Source: an uncultured bacterium (GTDB lineage Bacteria > Schekmanbacteria > GWA2-38-11 > J061). From it: 48,230 nucleotides of DNA. This document shows, piece by piece, positions 14,238-21,232 of this stretch. The translations under genes and the position numbers were made by a program. Numbering within the stretch: the stretch's first letter is position 1; every line of letters starts with the position of its first letter. The DNA lies in NCBI GenBank assembly GCA_964549305.1, contig CAZJVM010000015.1, forward strand, positions 1 to 48,230, given 5' to 3'. The notes beneath the pieces are model-generated. The model had not been told where the DNA came from and did not search any database. It saw only the letters and a list, made by a program, of their open reading frames with translations.

Positions 14238-16019
14238 TTAAGTTGTAGTCACAAAACTATTTTTAACGCTTGCTTGCAACTTCTGATTCTCTCTTAATAA
14301 ACTATCGATTTCTGCCTTATCTCCTTTCATCAGAGCTTTTTCTATCTGAATCTTGTTTGTTTTAAGATTCCTCTTTATCTCTCTTTGAAGGTATTTTTTA
14401 AGACAGTCATCAAAACTTTTTTCTATATCAATAATTTCTTCACTCTTTAAACTTAGCTCACTGAACAATCCAAGCAACTCATCATCGCTCTCCTGTAGCA
14501 ACAGTGTTCCCAAACTTTCAAAATTGCCTTTCTCCAAAGACTCTTTTATTTTAAAAGCAATTCTTCTTAAAACTTTGTTCTCTATTGTTTCGGGATTAAT
14601 TTTTTCGAATATCCTCTCTCCCATCTCCCCGGAAGTCATCGCAATCGTTAAAATATACGATTCCAACACAAATCCGCTGTTAATTTCTTTTGTTCGAGAA
14701 TAATTATGGTTAGTTTTTTTCTTTTCATAATTAAAGGGTTTTTTTATTTTTTTATAAGCATCTATAATAAGATTTTCATCAACCTTTAAGCTTTCAGACA
14801 AGAATGAAGAATAAACGGCAAAATTAAAATTATCCAGGATTGATGACAGCATTTCAAAAACTTTATTCAGCGCCTTCTTCTTTCCTCCCGAATCACCAAT
14901 ATCAAATCCGCTGATTATGTTCGATATGACAAACTCTCCTGTGTCTACTGATTCATCAGTCAGTTTTTCAAGGAAACCTCTGCCTTTCTTTCTCAATGTG
15001 CTGTCAAGGTCCTCCCCGGAAGGCAGAAGCAATACTCTGGAAGAAAGTTTTGTCCCTGATATTTTCTCCCAGGACCTCACAACCGCGCTTACGCCGGCTT
15101 TATCCGCGTCAAATACAAAAAATAAGTTATCAGCATAAATCTTCACTGTTTTTATCTGCTCGTCCGTCAACGATGTGCCGAGTGGCGCTACAACTTCCGG
15201 AAATCCGTATTTATGCCCCATTATGACATCTATGTAACCCTCGGTTATGAAGACTCTCTTCTTCGCGCTGATTTCTTTCTTCGCCTTTGAAAAACCGTAA
15301 AGGATTTTGCTTTTCTTAAAAAGCGGCGTTTCCGGGCTGTTTATGTATTTTGCCCCTTCTTCCTTGTCGAGCGCGCGCGCGCCAAATCCTCTCGTCCTGC
15401 CGTCTCTGTCAAAAATAGGAAAAATTATTCTGTTTCTGAACCTGTCATAAAAACCGTTGCCGTCATTTCTCTTCACTACAAGGCCCGACTTGATAATCTG
15501 CTTTGCCGAATAATCTTTTGCGAGCAGGGTTGAAAGGTATTCCCATTTTGCCGGAGCGTAACCTATCTCATATTCTTTAAGAATCTCGTCATCAAAGCCC
15601 CTTGCCCTCAAATAAGCAAACGCGTCTTTCCCTTCTTTACCGTTAAGATTCGATATAAAAAGTTTTTTCGCTTCATCGTTTATCCTGAAAAGCCACTCCA
15701 ACGATTCGCTGTCTTTTCTGTCAGATGAAAATTTCAAAACAATACCGTACTTTTTTGCAAGAAGATGAAGCGTATCGGGAAAAGAAGTGTTTTCGTGCTT
15801 CATTAGAAAAGTAAAGACATTTCCGCCGGCACCACATCCGAAGCAATGAAAAATCTGCTTTTCCGGAGAAACTACGAAAGAAGGAGTCTTCTCGTTGTGA
15901 AAGGGACATAATCCCTTAAAATTATTTCCCGTTTTTGAAAGGGAAACATATTCAGATATTATCTCGACAATATCCGAACTCCTTTTTATCTCTTCTATTT
16001 TCCCGTCATCAATAAGCAT
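14238..16019 (-). CDS. dnaG: DNA primase
   Basis: [17 protein letters not shown] zinc finger, [38 protein letters not shown]. Confidence 0.97.
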
Positions 16020-16044
16020 CGTTAATTAAGTTAATATTGTTTTA

Positions 16045-17013
16045 TTAATGTTTCTTCAACCTGCTGAAGCGCTTCAACCCCGAACAGGTATAAATCTTCA
16101 ATTTTGAATCTTTCTTTATTAGACTGTCCAATACAAGATTCATCCCCATTGAATCGCTTGACATATGGCCCGCGATTACAACATTGATATAATTCTTTTC
16201 CGCTTCTTTTCTGTGGTCTTCACCTATGTGCATCCCCACAATGGTTCCCACATCGGTATTGGCAAGATGCTGAAACATTTCCTTGGAACCACCCGTTCCT
16301 CCCGTCATATCAACGAATATATTTCCGCAACTTCTTTTTTCGCTTCCCACGAGCACTTTTGGAATATTCTGATCGAGAGACGATGATTTGTATTCAGGAA
16401 TATCAAGCAGTACATCGACGACATCGCTCACATAGCGCGGCTTTTTCTTCCCGAAAAGATTTTGAAGATGGCTCGTTACAGCATTGTCCGCGGGAGTGTG
16501 CACGCACATAAGAGGAATATCGAGCAATGACGCCGCATCCACCGTCCTGTTATAATTTACGGGCATCATTCTTCTCGAAACTTCGCTTATGCGGGGTTCA
16601 AGCATCGCCTCTGCAACCTGTACCGGAACACCGAACTTATGCAAAATATCCGCCTGCATACCCATTACATCGTAAAAATTAGCCATAGCCCTTCCCTCGG
16701 GATGATGTGCTATGACCAGGTCAATATCTATTCCCTTTTCCCGTAACCTGTCTGCAAGCAAAATCTCGCCTACCTCTATATCTATACCCACAAGAACATT
16801 TTTAACTTCTTTTTTTACGTTACCGTAAAGAATTCTTGTATCGGCAAAGGGATTTACAAGCCTTTCCTTGTCGAAAGACGCCTTTTTATTCTTGGATAGT
16901 TCGTCGAATTCCCTCTTTTCACGGTTGAGTTGCTCTTTGACTCCTTTCGCGCCTCTGGGGTCAACTTTAATTCCCAATTCCACGACTTTTTTATAAATGT
17001 CATTGATTTTCAT
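16045..17013 (-). CDS. NIF3-like dinuclear metal-centre protein
   Basis: AHHPEG, HTPADN and AGHMSSD metal-binding His motifs. Confidence 0.85.
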   Translation of the reverse strand: MKINDIYKKVVELGIKVDPRGAKGVKEQLNREKREFDELSKNKKASFDKERLVNPFADTRILYGNVKKEVKNVLVGIDIEVGEILLADRLREKGIDIDLVIAHHPEGRAMANFYDVMGMQADILHKFGVPVQVAEAMLEPRISEVSRRMMPVNYNRTVDAASLLDIPLMCVHTPADNAVTSHLQNLFGKKKPRYVSDVVDVLLDIPEYKSSSLDQNIPKVLVGSEKRSCGNIFVDMTGGTGGSKEMFQHLANTDVGTIVGMHIGEDHRKEAEKNYINVVIAGHMSSDSMGMNLVLDSLIKKDSKLKIYTCSGLKRFSRLKKH

Positions 17014-17132
17014 AGTATTATTATGAGTCCTTTAAAACCCTAGCTAATCACCTGTTTACACAATAAAATCCTGTTATTTCAGTAACAAAAGTGAGATAGG
17101 GGGGTGGTATAACTAAAATTCATTAATCGATA

Positions 17133-17160
17133 AATATAATACAGATTTTTTGTTTGTCAA
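17133..17160 (-). promoter_or_regulatory. Putative sigma70 promoter of nif3-dnaG-rpoD
   Basis: Minus strand TTGACA (17160-17155), 16 bp spacer, TATATT (17138-17133). Confidence 0.5.
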
Positions 17161-17231
17161 GAATATGAGATTTTTTTGTCTAAAAAATTCCCTAAATCAA
17201 GAAAACAATAAAAAATAATAAATTATTATTA

Positions 17232-17543
17232 TTACCCGTGAAGAATTCTGCTACAATTCCAGCACTGCACAATGTCTCTTTCTTCGCTTATTATGCCCAC
17301 TTCCTGCGTTGGTAAAACAACATTACAGGCAGAACAGGTTCCGTCTTCTATTTTTGCAAGCGCTTCTCCGTCTCTTGCCCTGTAAAGTTTTTCATAAAGT
17401 GAGAATATGTTAGGTCTTAGAGTTGATGTGATTTTTTCTCTCGACTTCGAACCTCTCTTTCTCTTGCTGTTTTTTTTCGCTTTTGAAAAGGCTTTTGTGT
17501 CCATTTCCTGAAGTTCGATTAATTTACTAATCTGCTCTCTCAT
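17232..17543 (-). CDS. Short C4 zinc-ribbon protein (DUF164-family paralog lacking the coiled coil), 103 aa
   Basis: ATG at 17543 with AGGAG RBS; LIELQEMD N-terminus and YEKL...CSAC.VVLP.Q...CWNCSRIL C-terminus match the two ends of the 11477-12196 protein. Confidence 0.85.
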   Translation of the reverse strand: MREQISKLIELQEMDTKAFSKAKKNSKRKRGSKSREKITSTLRPNIFSLYEKLYRARDGEALAKIEDGTCSACNVVLPTQEVGIISEERDIVQCWNCSRILHG

Positions 17544-18033
17544 TGTAAATCTCCTTTCCCTTATAAAAAGAAACATTCGTTTTAAACGGTGTCAATTTCT
17601 TAATATGCATAGCGATTTCAACTGCCTGAGATGAATTCTTTATTTTGTCATATATACTTTCTTCAGAAAGTCGTTCCAGCAAATCGCTGAAAATCCATAA
17701 CCATTCACCCTCCGTTGGAAGGACAATAAGAAAAATAAAGTGAATTTTTTCACCTGTTACCGATTTGAAGTTAACGCCTGTCACTGATTTTCCAATTGAT
17801 ATTACAGGGGTTATTGCATCATTTGAATAAATATGAGGGAATGCTATTTTCGGGAAAAGCACCGTGGAAGACTGCTCTTCACGGTCTATAAGTTCAACGA
17901 GCATCTTTTGTTTGTCAACCAAAACACCTGCAGATTCAAGGTGTATAAGCATTTCATAGAGACAACCGGATACTGATACCCCTTTTAAATCTGTCAGAAT
18001 ATAATCGGAATTTATAAAGTAATCTATCTTCAT
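17527..18033 (-). CDS. PTS IIA (PtsN/mannitol-fructose type) domain protein
   Basis: DREEQSST...IAFPH (phospho-His motif), GVNF.S..GEKIHFIFLI; stand-alone, with no IIB or IIC nearby. Confidence 0.85.
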   Translation of the reverse strand: MKIDYFINSDYILTDLKGVSVSGCLYEMLIHLESAGVLVDKQKMLVELIDREEQSSTVLFPKIAFPHIYSNDAITPVISIGKSVTGVNFKSVTGEKIHFIFLIVLPTEGEWLWIFSDLLERLSEESIYDKIKNSSQAVEIAMHIKKLTPFKTNVSFYKGKEIYNERAD

Positions 18034-18048
18034 AACGTTGTGCTTTAT

Positions 18049-18064
18049 TGCAATAATCGTGCCA
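18049..18064 (-). promoter_or_regulatory. Sigma54 (-24/-12) promoter
   Basis: Minus strand TGGCACGATTATTGCA matches the consensus TGGCACG-N4-TTGCW with exact GG-N10-GC spacing and points into the IIA gene. Confidence 0.88.
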
Positions 18065-18160
18065 CTTTTAATAATGCATAAAAAATATAATAAAAATTAA
18101 AATAATATAAAATAAAGCTCAATTATTCAGTTATTCCAAGCAAGATTCTCAAACCATATA

Positions 18161-18272
18161 TGCAATAATTGCACATATAATATATTTTAACACTTTAAGA
18201 TATTGATTTTAAAAGATAAAACAGGTTAAACGAATAGATGCAATATTTGCATCAAAAGTGCAATATTTGCAC
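18161..18272. promoter_or_regulatory. Candidate enhancer (UAS) sites: three TGCA-N5-TGCA palindromes
   Basis: TGCAATAATTGCA at 18161-18173; TGCAATATTTGCA at 18239-18251 and 18259-18271 (20-bp periodicity). Confidence 0.7.
18196..18208 (-). promoter_or_regulatory. Candidate IHF site
   Basis: Minus strand AATCAATATCTTA matches WATCAANNNNTTR exactly and lies between the tandem UAS pair and the sigma54 promoter. Confidence 0.55.
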
Positions 18273-18292
18273 ACCAGACTGACTTTCAAATA

Positions 18293-19672
18293 TCAAAAAT
18301 TATATTCTTTTAATTTATACTGCAAAGTTCTAAGGCTGATTCCTAAAAGATTAGCCGCTTCTCTCCTGTTTCCGTCTGTCATATTTACAGCTTCCTTAAT
18401 TGCCTCCATCTCTCTTTCCTTCAGTGATAAAAAATTCTTCAGCACCTTTTTGTTTTTCCTTTCATCCTCTCCCAAAACACGGGAAAAAATCTGTTCAGGC
18501 AAATCTTCGATTGTAATTACATTTTTTTTACACAGGACAACTGCCCTTTCAATTATATTTTTAAGCTCTCTCACATTTCCGGGGAAAGAATAGTTTTTAA
18601 GAATGTTCATTGTTTCATTGTCCATGGACTCAATCTCTTTTGAATATTTAATTAAAAACTTATTAAGAAACGCCAAAGCAAGTTGAGAAATATCTTCCCT
18701 TCTTTGGCGAAGCGGCGGAAGAGTGATTCGTATGACATTTAGCCGATAAAACAGGTCTTCTCTGAATTGTTTTTCCCGGCAAAGTACCTCAAGGTTTTTA
18801 TTTGTAGCTGCGATGAAGCGCACATCGACATCGATTTTTTCAAGCCCGCCGATACGGGTCACTTTCTGCTCTTCAAGAACCCTTAAAAGGTCAACCTGAT
18901 TGGCAAGACTTAATTCCGCAATTTCATCTAAAAAAAGAGTTCCCCTGTTTGCCTGTTCGATTCTTCCTTTCTTATTCTGAATTGCCCCCGTAAAAGCCCC
19001 TTTTTGATGACCGAACAGCTCGCTTTCAATAAGATTTTCCGGCAATGCTCCGCAGTTTAAAGCTACAAAGGGCATTTCGTTCCTGTGACTTCTCCTGTGA
19101 ATCGCGCGTGCGACAAGCTCCTTTCCCGTACCGCTTTCACCTTCTAAAAGCACTGTTACGTCTGCAGGCGCTATTTCATCAATCATTTTATAAATCATTT
19201 TTATCTTCGGACTTGTTCCCACAATTTCATCATTTTGCGAATCTATTTTAAGCATCTCCTTAAGACGTTTGTTTTCATCTAAAAGCGTATGCCTTTGAAT
19301 AAGGTTTGACAGATAGTTTTTGAAATACTTCGTATCTATGGGGTGCTGAAGAAAATCATGGGCACCTTTTTTCAATGATTCTATTGCAGTTGAAATAGTC
19401 CCTTCCGATGACATCAGTATGACATCGGTTACCGGGTCCTTTGACTTCGTAAACTCAAGAAGCGCCAGTCCGTTATAGTTCTTCATATTGAAGGAAGAAA
19501 AAACTAGATTGTAATCATTTTCTTCTATAAGCTTTTTTGCCTTCAGACTGTCCGAGGCATATGTTACCGTAAAGTCCGAGGGGGCAAAGCAGGAAGCTAA
19601 AAGCTTCATAGTGGAAGGATTTTCCGTTACAAGCAGAACGGATAGTTTTCTTTCAGGCATTAAATCATTCAA
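18293..19672 (-). CDS. Sigma54-dependent Fis-family enhancer-binding protein with a degenerate (pseudo-)receiver domain
   Basis: GESGTGKE, ESELFGH, GAFTGA, LFLDEI, FREDLFYRL, FPGNVRELKN, C-terminal Fis HTH; the REC domain lacks the acidic pocket, the phospho-Asp and the Lys. Confidence 0.95.
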   Translation of the reverse strand: MNDLMPERKLSVLLVTENPSTMKLLASCFAPSDFTVTYASDSLKAKKLIEENDYNLVFSSFNMKNYNGLALLEFTKSKDPVTDVILMSSEGTISTAIESLKKGAHDFLQHPIDTKYFKNYLSNLIQRHTLLDENKRLKEMLKIDSQNDEIVGTSPKIKMIYKMIDEIAPADVTVLLEGESGTGKELVARAIHRRSHRNEMPFVALNCGALPENLIESELFGHQKGAFTGAIQNKKGRIEQANRGTLFLDEIAELSLANQVDLLRVLEEQKVTRIGGLEKIDVDVRFIAATNKNLEVLCREKQFREDLFYRLNVIRITLPPLRQRREDISQLALAFLNKFLIKYSKEIESMDNETMNILKNYSFPGNVRELKNIIERAVVLCKKNVITIEDLPEQIFSRVLGEDERKNKKVLKNFLSLKEREMEAIKEAVNMTDGNRREAANLLGISLRTLQYKLKEYNF

Positions 19673-19750
19673 CCCCTGATAAACGGAGATAGTTTAAAAA
19701 ATATTAATAATGACACGTTTCCCTGTTGATAATGGGACAGTATATCATGT

Positions 19751-19786
19751 AAAAAAAAAGGGAAAAAGGATTTTATCCTTTCCCCC
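19751..19786 (-). terminator. Rho-independent terminator of the TCA/kor operon
   Basis: Minus strand GGGGAAAGGA-TAAAA-TCCTTTTTCCC followed by a T9 run, about 55 bp after the korC stop. Confidence 0.75.
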
Positions 19787-19839
19787 TAATAAGCTGTCTT
19801 TAAACACTAATTATCAGCAAACATTTTTCAAAAGAATCA

Positions 19840-20385
19840 TCAGGCAGACGCGGCATTAAAACCTTCTTCAAGCGCCCTTTTATTGAGGTCTTTAAATGCC
19901 GCAGGCACTCTTGCAAGCACCGCTTTTTCAACAGCATCTTTTGAAACAACCCCGCTTGCCCCTACAAGCACACCCAATGCAACGATATTTGCCGTTATCA
20001 CTTTCCCTACCTTTTTCTTGGCAATATCAATTATGGATACTTTAATGAGCTTTCCGCACTTATCAGAAGGAATATCCTTGACGAGATCTTCATCAACTAT
20101 CAATATGCCGTCACTTTTAAGATCTACTACATACTTATCAAGAGCTTTTTGCGTAAGCGCAAGAAGAACATCGATTTTCGTAGCTTTAGGAAAGTCAATC
20201 TTTTCATCGCTTATAATGACATCGGATTTGCTTGCGCCTCCTCTTGCCTCGGGACCGTAAGACTGACTTTGCAAAGCATGCTTATTTTCATAAATGGATG
20301 CCGCTTCTCCGAGTATTACTCCCGCAAGAATCAGACCCTGTCCCCCGGAACCGCTTAATCTTATTTCTTTTTTGTCGTTAGCCAT
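19840..20385 (-). CDS. korC: 2-oxoglutarate:ferredoxin oxidoreductase gamma subunit
   Basis: GSGGQG, QSYGPEARGGAS, ANIVALG. Confidence 0.9.
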   Translation of the reverse strand: MANDKKEIRLSGSGGQGLILAGVILGEAASIYENKHALQSQSYGPEARGGASKSDVIISDEKIDFPKATKIDVLLALTQKALDKYVVDLKSDGILIVDEDLVKDIPSDKCGKLIKVSIIDIAKKKVGKVITANIVALGVLVGASGVVSKDAVEKAVLARVPAAFKDLNKRALEEGFNAASA

Positions 20386-20413
20386 CTCTTATTTATCCTC
20401 ACTTTAAGCTAAA

Positions 20414-21232
20414 TTACTTTGCCATACTTTGAGCTCTGTCTATCAGAAGCTTGTATTGTTCCGTATATTCAGGTTTTTCGATATTAACGAAAACACCTAT
20501 GGGAAGCTTCCCTGCTTTTTCTTCATCGCTCATCTTATCAAACTTCTGTTTAGGTATGCAGTTATCTTTGAGCCAATTCATCATAACTAATGGCGTCGGT
20601 TGTTTATTTCTCCTCCCGAATGAAGTCGGGCAGGGATTCATAACTTCAACCAATGAAAAACCTTTTTTGTTTATTGCCTGCTCGATGAGTTTATCAAGAG
20701 GTACCGCATGATAGACCGTTCCTCTTGCCACAAAGCTTGCGCCTGCGGCAGTCGCGAGGTCGCATACATCGAAAGGCGGTTCTATGGTTCCGTAAGGCGC
20801 AGTTGTCGCAAATTTCCCCTGAGGTGTAGTTGGCGAATATTGTCCGCCCGTCATACCGTAGATATAGTTGTTATAAACAAGGACAGTGATATCTATATTT
20901 CTTCTTGCGGCGTGAATGAAGTGGTTGCCTCCGATTGCCGTTGCGTCTCCGTCTCCCGATACCACCATAACATTCATGTCGGGATTAACCATCTTTACTC
21001 CCGTGGCAAAAGGAAGAGCGCGCCCGTGTGTAGTGTGAAGAGTGTTAAAATCCAGATAACCGGGAGTTCTGCTCGAGCATCCTATGCCGGAAACCATTGT
21101 AATTTCATCTTTCTGAAGCCCTACTCTGTCTATGGCTCTCATAACAGATTTCATGGCTATGCCATATCCGCACCCCGGACACCATATATGCGGAAATTTA
21201 TCCTGCCGCATAAATTTTTCATAAATACTCAT
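20414..21232 (-). CDS. korB: 2-oxoglutarate:ferredoxin oxidoreductase beta subunit
   Basis: WCPGCG, SGIGCS, HTTHGRA, GDGD...NN TPP motif, YGMTGGQ.SPT. Confidence 0.93.
   Translation of the reverse strand: MSIYEKFMRQDKFPHIWCPGCGYGIAMKSVMRAIDRVGLQKDEITMVSGIGCSSRTPGYLDFNTLHTTHGRALPFATGVKMVNPDMNVMVVSGDGDATAIGGNHFIHAARRNIDITVLVYNNYIYGMTGGQYSPTTPQGKFATTAPYGTIEPPFDVCDLATAAGASFVARGTVYHAVPLDKLIEQAINKKGFSLVEVMNPCPTSFGRRNKQPTPLVMMNWLKDNCIPKQKFDKMSDEEKAGKLPIGVFVNIEKPEYTEQYKLLIDRAQSMAK

Follow-up and report, generated by a model that had tools for sequence, protein, structure and literature searches.

The 48,230-nt stretch of DNA analyzed here (the window), which belongs to the 2.94-Mb genome of an uncultured bacterium (G000), carries a compact unit made up of a gene for an NtrC-family bacterial enhancer-binding protein (bEBP), three palindromes resembling upstream activating sequences, a site of the type bound by integration host factor (IHF), a sigma-54 promoter and two overlapping small genes, which encode a stand-alone enzyme IIA (EIIA) of the phosphotransferase system (PTS) and a truncated zinc-ribbon protein of the DUF164 family (mini-DUF164, or mini). 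All of these parts had been claimed in an earlier note on this DNA, and all were confirmed, each on the minus strand. Taken as a whole, the unit is probably a sigma-54 circuit, driven by its own orphan bEBP, that expresses EIIA and mini-DUF164 as a signalling unit. The arrangement of activator, enhancers, IHF site and sigma-54 promoter is of a known kind, as are receivers devoid of the acceptor aspartate, while the output of the circuit, the existence of EIIA and mini-DUF164 as a widespread and sometimes fused module, and the capture of this module by sigma-54 in the window lineage appear to be new. The literature searched, which excluded most subscription journals, yielded no description of the EIIA and mini-DUF164 pair.

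The bEBP gene, whose probable start is the ATG at position 19660, encodes a protein with a retained receiver fold (PF00072, 62 bits), a Sigma54_activat domain (PF00158, 238 bits) whose translation contains the GAFTGA motif and a Walker A sequence (GESGTGKE), and a C-terminal Fis-type helix-turn-helix (HTH) domain (PF02954, HTH_8, 46.7 bits). Its nearest solved structures are those of NtrC4 and NtrC1 from Aquifex aeolicus (4l4u, E 1.9e-101, and 1ny5, E 4.3e-96, respectively). The spacer of 259 bp which separates this gene from the EIIA gene contains three copies of TGCAA-N3-TTGCA. The underlying pattern, TGCAAWWWTTGCA, is present four times in the entire genome, three of these copies being situated at this locus, as against 0.68 copies per genome expected from base composition and zero to two copies in 20 shuffled genomes. 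The fourth copy, located on contig C21, falls within an open reading frame (ORF) of 596 residues and was dismissed as a chance occurrence. An exact match to the IHF consensus, WATCAANNNNTTR, is also present in the spacer, and its core AATCAA is invariant and found at the same relative place in the window and in two related genomes. Three genes of the HU/IHF family are present in the genome; two of them score best as IHF-beta (111 bits) and IHF-alpha (108.7 bits), just under the respective NCBIfam cut-offs of 115 and 111 bits.

The sigma-54 promoter, TGGCACGATTATTGCA, displays GG and GC dinucleotides ten bases apart, and belongs to a set of 26 strict matches found genome-wide, where approximately two are expected and 20 shuffles returned between zero and five. 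Since many of these 26 matches precede a Shine-Dalgarno sequence and an ATG, the organism clearly uses sigma-54; furthermore, rpoN itself was found on another contig. Sigma-54 use is unusually heavy for genomes of 2–3.6 Mb, as judged by the 26 strict promoters in G000 and by the 8–19 bEBP paralogs (E ≤ 1e-40) in each of four relatives (G001 to G004). The distance from TTGCA to the EIIA start codon is 15 nt in G000, and that from TTGCG to the corresponding ATG is likewise 15 nt in the related genome G002 (L032 6820-6858), with no Shine-Dalgarno sequence before the EIIA start in either genome. Because this spacing places the predicted transcription start site (TSS), at approximately position 18038, five nucleotides before an ATG that lacks a Shine-Dalgarno sequence, we infer from promoter geometry that the EIIA mRNAs of G000 and G002 are nearly leaderless, each carrying some 5 nt ahead of the start codon. 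Other sigma-54 promoters of the genome are followed by leaders of 30–60 nt with a strong Shine-Dalgarno sequence.

The unit was further compared across 41 genomes, the window's own included, among which one belongs to the same genus (G001), one to the same family (G002) and two to the same order (G003 and G004). Orthologs of the bEBP were identified with 72% (G001), 67% (G002) and 51% (G004) identity, while G003 returned only paralog-level matches to the proteins of the unit. The full layout is reproduced in G002, in which the gene order is korABG, bEBP, EIIA (49% identity), mini (58%), one extra ORF, nif3, dnaG, rpoD and full-length DUF164, and in which several TGCA-N5-TGCA sites, the AATCAA core and the promoter TGGTAC-N5-TTGCG lie upstream of EIIA. 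The extra ORF, which encodes 148 residues (L032 7847-8293) and is absent from G000, is inserted between mini and nif3; its product may resemble GatB/YqeY-type proteins. In G001, the bEBP gene is followed by a pair of palindromes with a spacing of 19 bp, then by AATCAATATGTTA and one more palindrome, after which the contig ends. In the 70% complete genome G004, a gene for a PAS histidine kinase precedes that of a bEBP ortholog with a canonical receiver, and the same palindrome, together with a GG-N10-GC promoter, occurs twice, i.e., before a gene for a secreted protein and before an EIIA gene (31% identity; L033 3140-3835 and 4110-4300), indicating that the ancestral regulon was larger. The secreted protein is small (165 residues), rich in Ala, Pro and Glu, and carries a putative peptidoglycan-binding end. 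Directly after the G004 EIIA gene, at the place which in G000 and G002 is occupied by mini, there is an ORF of approximately 35 residues, very basic and behind a good Shine-Dalgarno sequence (L033 4795-4908), which could be a remnant or a chance ORF. These comparisons support the view that the predicted unit is a real, conserved and dedicated sigma-54 circuit.

The earlier note had described the receiver of the bEBP as a pseudo-receiver. The aspartate of NtrC1 and NtrC4 aligned with the position in question is the phospho-acceptor. In an alignment with these two proteins and the orthologs, this position is occupied by Ser in G000 and Phe in G001, and by Asp in G002 and G004; the acidic pair reads EN in G000 and G001, ED in G002 and DD in G004, while the conserved Lys is replaced by His, Tyr and Leu in G000, G001 and G002, respectively, and is kept in G004 alone. 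The description thus stands for the window protein, although among the orthologs compared the acceptor was lost only in the window's genus (G000 and G001), and the state is a derived one because the G002 ortholog keeps the Asp and G004 has a full receiver with an adjacent kinase. For that kinase, only paralog-level matches (35–36%) were detected in G000, G001, G002 and G003. The window bEBP is accordingly an orphan activator with a genuine pseudo-receiver and without a recognizable cognate kinase, and the pseudo-receiver is what remains after a classical two-component system decayed step by step, rather than a feature ancestral to the unit. Activation would then be independent of phosphorylation, being set by the abundance of the activator or by some ligand or partner, and the bent enhancer would carry three activator dimers, joined into a hexamer that opens the sigma-54 promoter, giving rise to the nearly leaderless mRNA.

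The first product of this mRNA, the window EIIA, matches PF00359 (PTS_EIIA_2) with 74.8 bits, and its candidate phosphorylation site, the His of the AFPH motif, is invariant in all 30 aligned sequences. Two EIIA_2 matches are present in the genome, namely the window EIIA and a canonical ptsN on contig C41, where (L049 618-9214) the genes rpoN, hpf, ptsN, hprK, those for mannose-type IIA, IIB, IIC and IID, and those for HPr and EI all point in one direction; the gene before rpoN is presumably lptB. This cluster represents an HprK-containing PTS from a lineage of which very few relatives have been sequenced. The complete phosphorelay (EI and HPr) and HprK are therewith encoded in the genome, away from the window unit, and the window EIIA would be phosphorylated on its His by this relay. 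The window EIIA does not reach the cut-off of the PtsN equivalog TIGR01419 (19.7 bits, cut-off 138.7). For EIIA proteins of the PtsN type, which are regulators, targets are known from no more than a few proteobacteria. The proposal in the earlier note that both outputs of the unit are regulators was borne out as far as appearance goes: both look regulatory, the window EIIA has no IIB or IIC gene beside it, and it is the canonical ptsN that accompanies rpoN, on another contig.

The second product is related to the DUF164 proteins FlgZ and CdsZ, which are, to our knowledge, the only known chaperone-like factors of sigma-54. The zinc-ribbon ORF matches PF02591 with 33.6 bits (cut-off 29.1), and its translation probably begins at the second ATG (17543), which a GGAGA Shine-Dalgarno sequence precedes; this results in a protein of 103 residues and a 17-nt overlap with EIIA, so that the gene appears translationally coupled to that of EIIA. 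In the protein, a helix at the N-terminus is followed by a short basic hairpin and then by a C4 zinc ribbon, all four Cys of which are invariant in 31 sequences. Its AlphaFold2 model, built from 31 sequences (pLDDT 76, pTM 0.69), contains helices at residues 2-22, 31-41 and 44-56 followed by the ribbon, and the only significant matches of this model in the PDB are CT398 (E 9.6e-6), HP0958 (E 9e-5) and MSMEG_4306 (E 1.9e-3). Of the full-length DUF164 profile, only positions 1-24 and 152-231 are represented in the mini, with positions ~25-151 absent, and no match to PF24481, the coiled-coil hairpin of about 180 residues, was obtained in it. The mini is thus, according to profile and model, the base of the hairpin or coiled coil plus the ribbon of the CT398/HP0958 fold, with most of the coiled coil missing.

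This truncation bears directly on the idea, put forward in the earlier note, that the mini binds and stabilizes (or antagonizes) sigma-54 in the manner of FlgZ and CdsZ, such that sigma-54 drives its own modulator in a phosphorylation-independent feedback. The position of the mini gene behind a consensus sigma-54 promoter and its homology to CdsZ and HP0958, evident from the fold matches and from the CdsZ row of NCBIfam (50 bits), agree with such a role. However, in PMC5947703, which cites Barta 2015, it is only the coiled coil of CT398 that is reported to bind RpoN, and since this is a part that the mini largely lacks, a direct FlgZ-like hold on sigma-54 is doubtful and less likely than the earlier note had it. 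The option stays alive because, according to PMC3372290, the CXXC cysteines of the Helicobacter pylori protein are needed for RpoN accumulation.

A second line of evidence regarding both small proteins comes from outside the window lineage. In the distant high-GC genome G039, a BLAST search revealed a DUF164-like ORF of 121 residues that overlaps the stop codon of an EIIA gene, and this protein, employed as a query, produced matches in 196 of the 201 genomes of its phylum. In every one of the 30 loci returned from that phylum, EIIA is found directly upstream of the short DUF164 gene, separated from it by -4 to +9 nt. Gemmatimonadota and Krumholzibacteriota were the commonest taxa among look-alike clusters in the Atlas, and a profile built from both lineages retrieved 1319 proteins at E ≤ 1e-10 from 1.84 billion representatives; among the best 149 of these 1319, short proteins occupy the top of the list, 96 being of 95-150 residues and 44 of at least 200 residues. 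A scan of species genomes with representatives of the short form returned at least 80 loci, and EIIA ends just before the mini in 78 of the 80 (73 by an automatic gap rule and five in which the start of the mini ORF was over-extended and EIIA ends at the start of the match), the other two sitting at contig edges. By title, these 80 loci derive from Eisenbacteria, Krumholzibacteriota, KSB1, Calditrichota, Gemmatimonadota, Latescibacterota and Zixiibacteriota, together with many unclassified bacteria and records labelled Fibrobacteraceae, Cytophagia or Deferribacteres. An initial impression that the mini is restricted to its own lineage, based on a word-indexed search with five clusters, all from that lineage, proved wrong in view of these widespread short forms; a scan with the EIIA as a single protein had given only distant matches, and alignment scans with the mini had given mostly full-length DUF164 proteins.

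The pair is, in addition, occasionally encoded as one polypeptide. The 279-residue protein P0138 carries PF00359 at residues 8-149 and the whole mini profile at 158-272, five of its 64 matches (278–282 residues) carry both PF00359 and PF02591, and, in the order of their genes, the window EIIA matches the first half of P0138 (E 3e-5) and the mini the second half (E 3e-11). A corresponding search for longer proteins with the mini of the other phylum returned 15 matches, none of which lists PF00359 and ten of which carry PF24481; P0158 and P0169, which are among these 15, are full-length coiled-coil proteins, and the fusions came to light solely by way of the profile search and P0138. The zinc ribbon, called truncated in the earlier note, is consequently no local peculiarity and has counterparts both as a separate gene and as a fusion. 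These observations also bear on the view that the adjacency is functionally meaningless, in which case EIIA would be a routine component of a sugar PTS and the zinc ribbon a small protein that binds nucleic acids and is unrelated to it. The best NCBIfam rows for the window EIIA are indeed fructose-type IIA models, albeit all under cut-off, whereas the lack of a IIB or IIC neighbour, the natural fusions and the retention of the pair, overlapping or nearly abutting, in 108 of the 110 loci examined outside the lineage (the other two cannot be judged) leave a fortuitous arrangement scarcely credible.

By contrast with this constancy of the pair, its sigma-54 wiring was not encountered elsewhere. 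With up to two mismatches allowed in the 300 nt upstream of EIIA, the sigma-54 consensus was detected in none of the 30 loci of G039's phylum, and in the second set in only three of 78 loci, all three at a distance of -171 to -267; none of the 80 loci contains rpoN, hpf, hprK, HPr or EI within 2.5 kb of the pair. Five genomes of G039's phylum are all rpoN-bearing and possess two or three EIIA genes each, none of them adjacent to rpoN. In four of the 80 loci (L283 and L285-L287), the opposite strand carries a bEBP-like gene 1–2.6 kb downstream of the pair. The neighbours of the pair in other phyla, judged by eye, include apparent genes for a nucleotidyl-transferase (33 loci), RsgA (27), a glycosyltransferase (23) and a Clp-type ATPase (22), and these conserved neighbours gave no clue to function. 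The bEBP and sigma-54 wiring is specific to the window lineage, because the pairs in other phyla are neither sigma-54-driven nor rpoN-linked. Sigma-54 feedback is, for the same reason, not the general logic of the module, and a mini which acts as a sigma-54 modulator seems rather improbable for the window unit as well.

Under the reading favored here, that of a bEBP-driven circuit whose output is a signalling unit, EIIA and the mini zinc-ribbon protein would act as one, the zinc-ribbon module would dock on RNA polymerase or RNA, by homology to FlgZ, CdsZ and ML1638, and the unit would have been put under sigma-54 control in the window lineage only. The AlphaFold3 models in preprint 10.64898/2026.07.15.738315 place the zinc ribbon of ML1638 and CT398 on the beta-prime shelf/jaw, with the coiled-coil tip at the sigma site. 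It has to be considered whether the mini, having kept this polymerase-anchoring end, serves as a decoy which competes with the full-length paralog for the beta-prime site, with EIIA gating the competition. Such a role fits with the occurrence of the mini and the full-length paralog 5 kb apart in the same genome and with the two DUF164 matches, one short and one long, in many genomes of G039's phylum, yet several genomes of that phylum contain a single match only and the anchoring itself is a prediction; in our estimation, the decoy is an unlikely option. A bolder version of the favored reading, in which EIIA and the mini constitute a two-piece switch (one-piece in some bacteria) whereby the PTS phosphorylation state controls docking of the ribbon on RNA polymerase, here driven by the bEBP and closing a feedback loop between sigma-54 and the PTS, is put forward tentatively, as a less than likely reading. 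A prediction of the complex of EIIA, mini and zinc scored 0.01 against a mark of 0.32 and, no controls having been run, counts neither for nor against binding.

A number of observations weigh against a dedicated sigma-54 circuit built around the widespread pair. The docking of the ribbon on RNA polymerase rests on the AlphaFold3 model of the preprint and not on experiment, while the TSS, the sigma-54 dependence and the leaderless translation are predictions. The IHF match alone is not significant, as two occur in the window and 4.8 are expected. Conservation of the triplet, which the earlier note had singled out for scrutiny, holds for G002, yet the EIIA gene of G004 has no mini after it, and in G001, a 97%-complete genome in 370 contigs, the EIIA ortholog and mini were not found, being either unassembled or absent. 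Both proteins of the window pair are divergent. A profile of the 78 paired EIIA proteins scores the canonical ptsN product at 130.6 bits and the window EIIA at 63.2 bits; similarly, the window mini scores 84.5 bits against the full-length DUF164 profile and 62.1 bits against that of the short forms, and a quick tree places it among the long forms with a support of 87. The pair in the window may thus have come to resemble the widespread one by convergence. The independent origin of the window mini suggested by the quick tree was not upheld by an approximately unbiased (AU) test, in which a tree constrained to a single clade of all short forms was better by 19.7 log-likelihood units and was not rejected (p-AU 0.76). 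The window zinc ribbon, by these comparisons, appears to belong to, or to mimic, the widespread short-DUF164 family.

If the two-piece switch were to operate as outlined, nutrient status would act on the transcription machinery directly, with no need of a permease, in many FCB-type phyla. Independently of that mechanism, a fixed and sometimes fused partnership of EIIA and zinc ribbon across many uncultured phyla names a concrete, testable partner for each of the two proteins, and suggests that nutrient sensing may be coupled directly to the machinery of transcription. The window may be regarded as a natural experiment, in which the pair has been placed behind a dedicated activator with a decayed receiver, while a related genome illustrates the stepwise path from a two-component system.

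The borders of the unit are as the earlier note had them, that is, between the terminator of the upstream operon, which encodes a 2-oxoacid:ferredoxin oxidoreductase (kor), and nif3-dnaG-rpoD (Table 1). This terminator is predicted to insulate the 5' side. At the 3' side, no convincing terminator was detected between the mini gene and the nif3 promoter (-6.5 kcal/mol, z -0.89), so that the read-through into nif3-dnaG-rpoD envisaged earlier is possible, although nif3 has a near-consensus sigma-70 promoter of its own. An Rfam scan of positions 16000-20500 returned one sub-threshold chance match and nothing else. The nif3-dnaG-rpoD-DUF164 synteny has been described by Pereira et al. 2011 (PMC3372290) and in PMC8469502.

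Table 1. Features of the sigma-54 unit and its surroundings; positions refer to the window.
Feature	Position	Strand	Basis or remark
Predicted intrinsic terminator of the upstream kor genes, after korG	19759..19787	-	13-pair stem, then T-run
bEBP gene, NtrC-family	18293..19672	-	459-residue ORF; Pfam Response_reg, Sigma54_activat, AAA_lid_14, HTH_8
Enhancer palindrome 1 (predicted), TGCAA-N3-TTGCA	18259..18271	.	Pattern search and comparison with relatives
Enhancer palindrome 2 (predicted), TGCAA-N3-TTGCA	18239..18251	.	Centre-to-centre 20 bp from palindrome 1
IHF-consensus site AATCAATATCTTA, between palindromes 2 and 3	18196..18208	-	Exact consensus match
Enhancer palindrome 3 (predicted), TGCAA-N3-TTGCA	18161..18173	.	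~105 bp upstream of the -24 GG
Sigma-54 promoter TGGCAC-N5-TTGCA (-24/-12)	18049..18064	-	Strict consensus match
Predicted 5-nt leader	18034..18038	-	TSS inferred ~12 nt after the -12 C
Stand-alone PtsN-like EIIA paralog, 168 residues	17527..18033	-	PF00359; His in AFPH motif
Mini-DUF164 zinc-ribbon gene, 103 residues	17232..17543	-	PF02591; whole ORF 17576..17232
Sigma-70-type promoter TTGACA-16-TATATT before nif3-dnaG-rpoD	17133..17160	-	11 of 12; 3' border of the unit
Full-length DUF164/CdsZ-like paralog, 252 residues	11477..12235	-	After nif3-dnaG-rpoD, classical position

When compared with known systems, the window bEBP shares the architecture of receiver, AAA+ domain (with GAFTGA) and Fis-type HTH that is common to NtrC1 and NtrC4 of Aquifex aeolicus and to the bEBPs NtrC, AtoC and ZraR, and the predicted upstream palindromes, IHF-type site and -24/-12 promoter of the unit are likewise those of NtrC-type systems. 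It differs from NtrC1 and NtrC4 in having a receiver whose acceptor Asp, second acidic residue and conserved Lys have given way to other residues, from NtrC-type two-component systems in that no cognate kinase gene was found in its genome, and from NtrC-type regulators in that its regulon seems, by motif count, to be a single promoter. The window EIIA resembles EIIA-Ntr (PtsN) in its PF00359 fold, its conserved phosphorylatable His, the absence of a permease beside it and a genomic context that includes EI, HPr and HprK, whereas it is not rpoN-linked, scores far under the equivalog cut-off, is preceded by a predicted sigma-54 promoter of its own and has a zinc-ribbon gene coupled to it.

As regards DUF164/COG1579 proteins, the mini shares its C4 zinc ribbon (PF02591), together with the helical turns that open and close the hairpin, with HP0958/FlgZ, CT398/CdsZ and MSMEG_4306/ML1638, while it is 103 rather than about 240 residues long, with the coiled-coil hairpin almost wholly missing; the window genome also carries a full-length paralog in the classical nif3-dnaG-rpoD-DUF164 neighbourhood. 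An EIIA gene precedes the mini, in contrast to full-length DUF164 genes, none of whose 137 loci have EIIA upstream. A further counterpart is the widespread pair, in which, as in the window, EIIA is followed on the same strand by an overlapping or abutting mini, and the minis of both share a length of 103–135 residues, an LxxLQ-hD helix, a YxR/K motif and the CxxC...CxxC pattern. Relative to these, the mini of the window lineage is the shortest and has a basic linker in place of the GF, near-invariant in most short forms, at the tip of the hairpin, and only in the window lineage is the pair preceded by a bEBP gene, predicted enhancers and a sigma-54 promoter.

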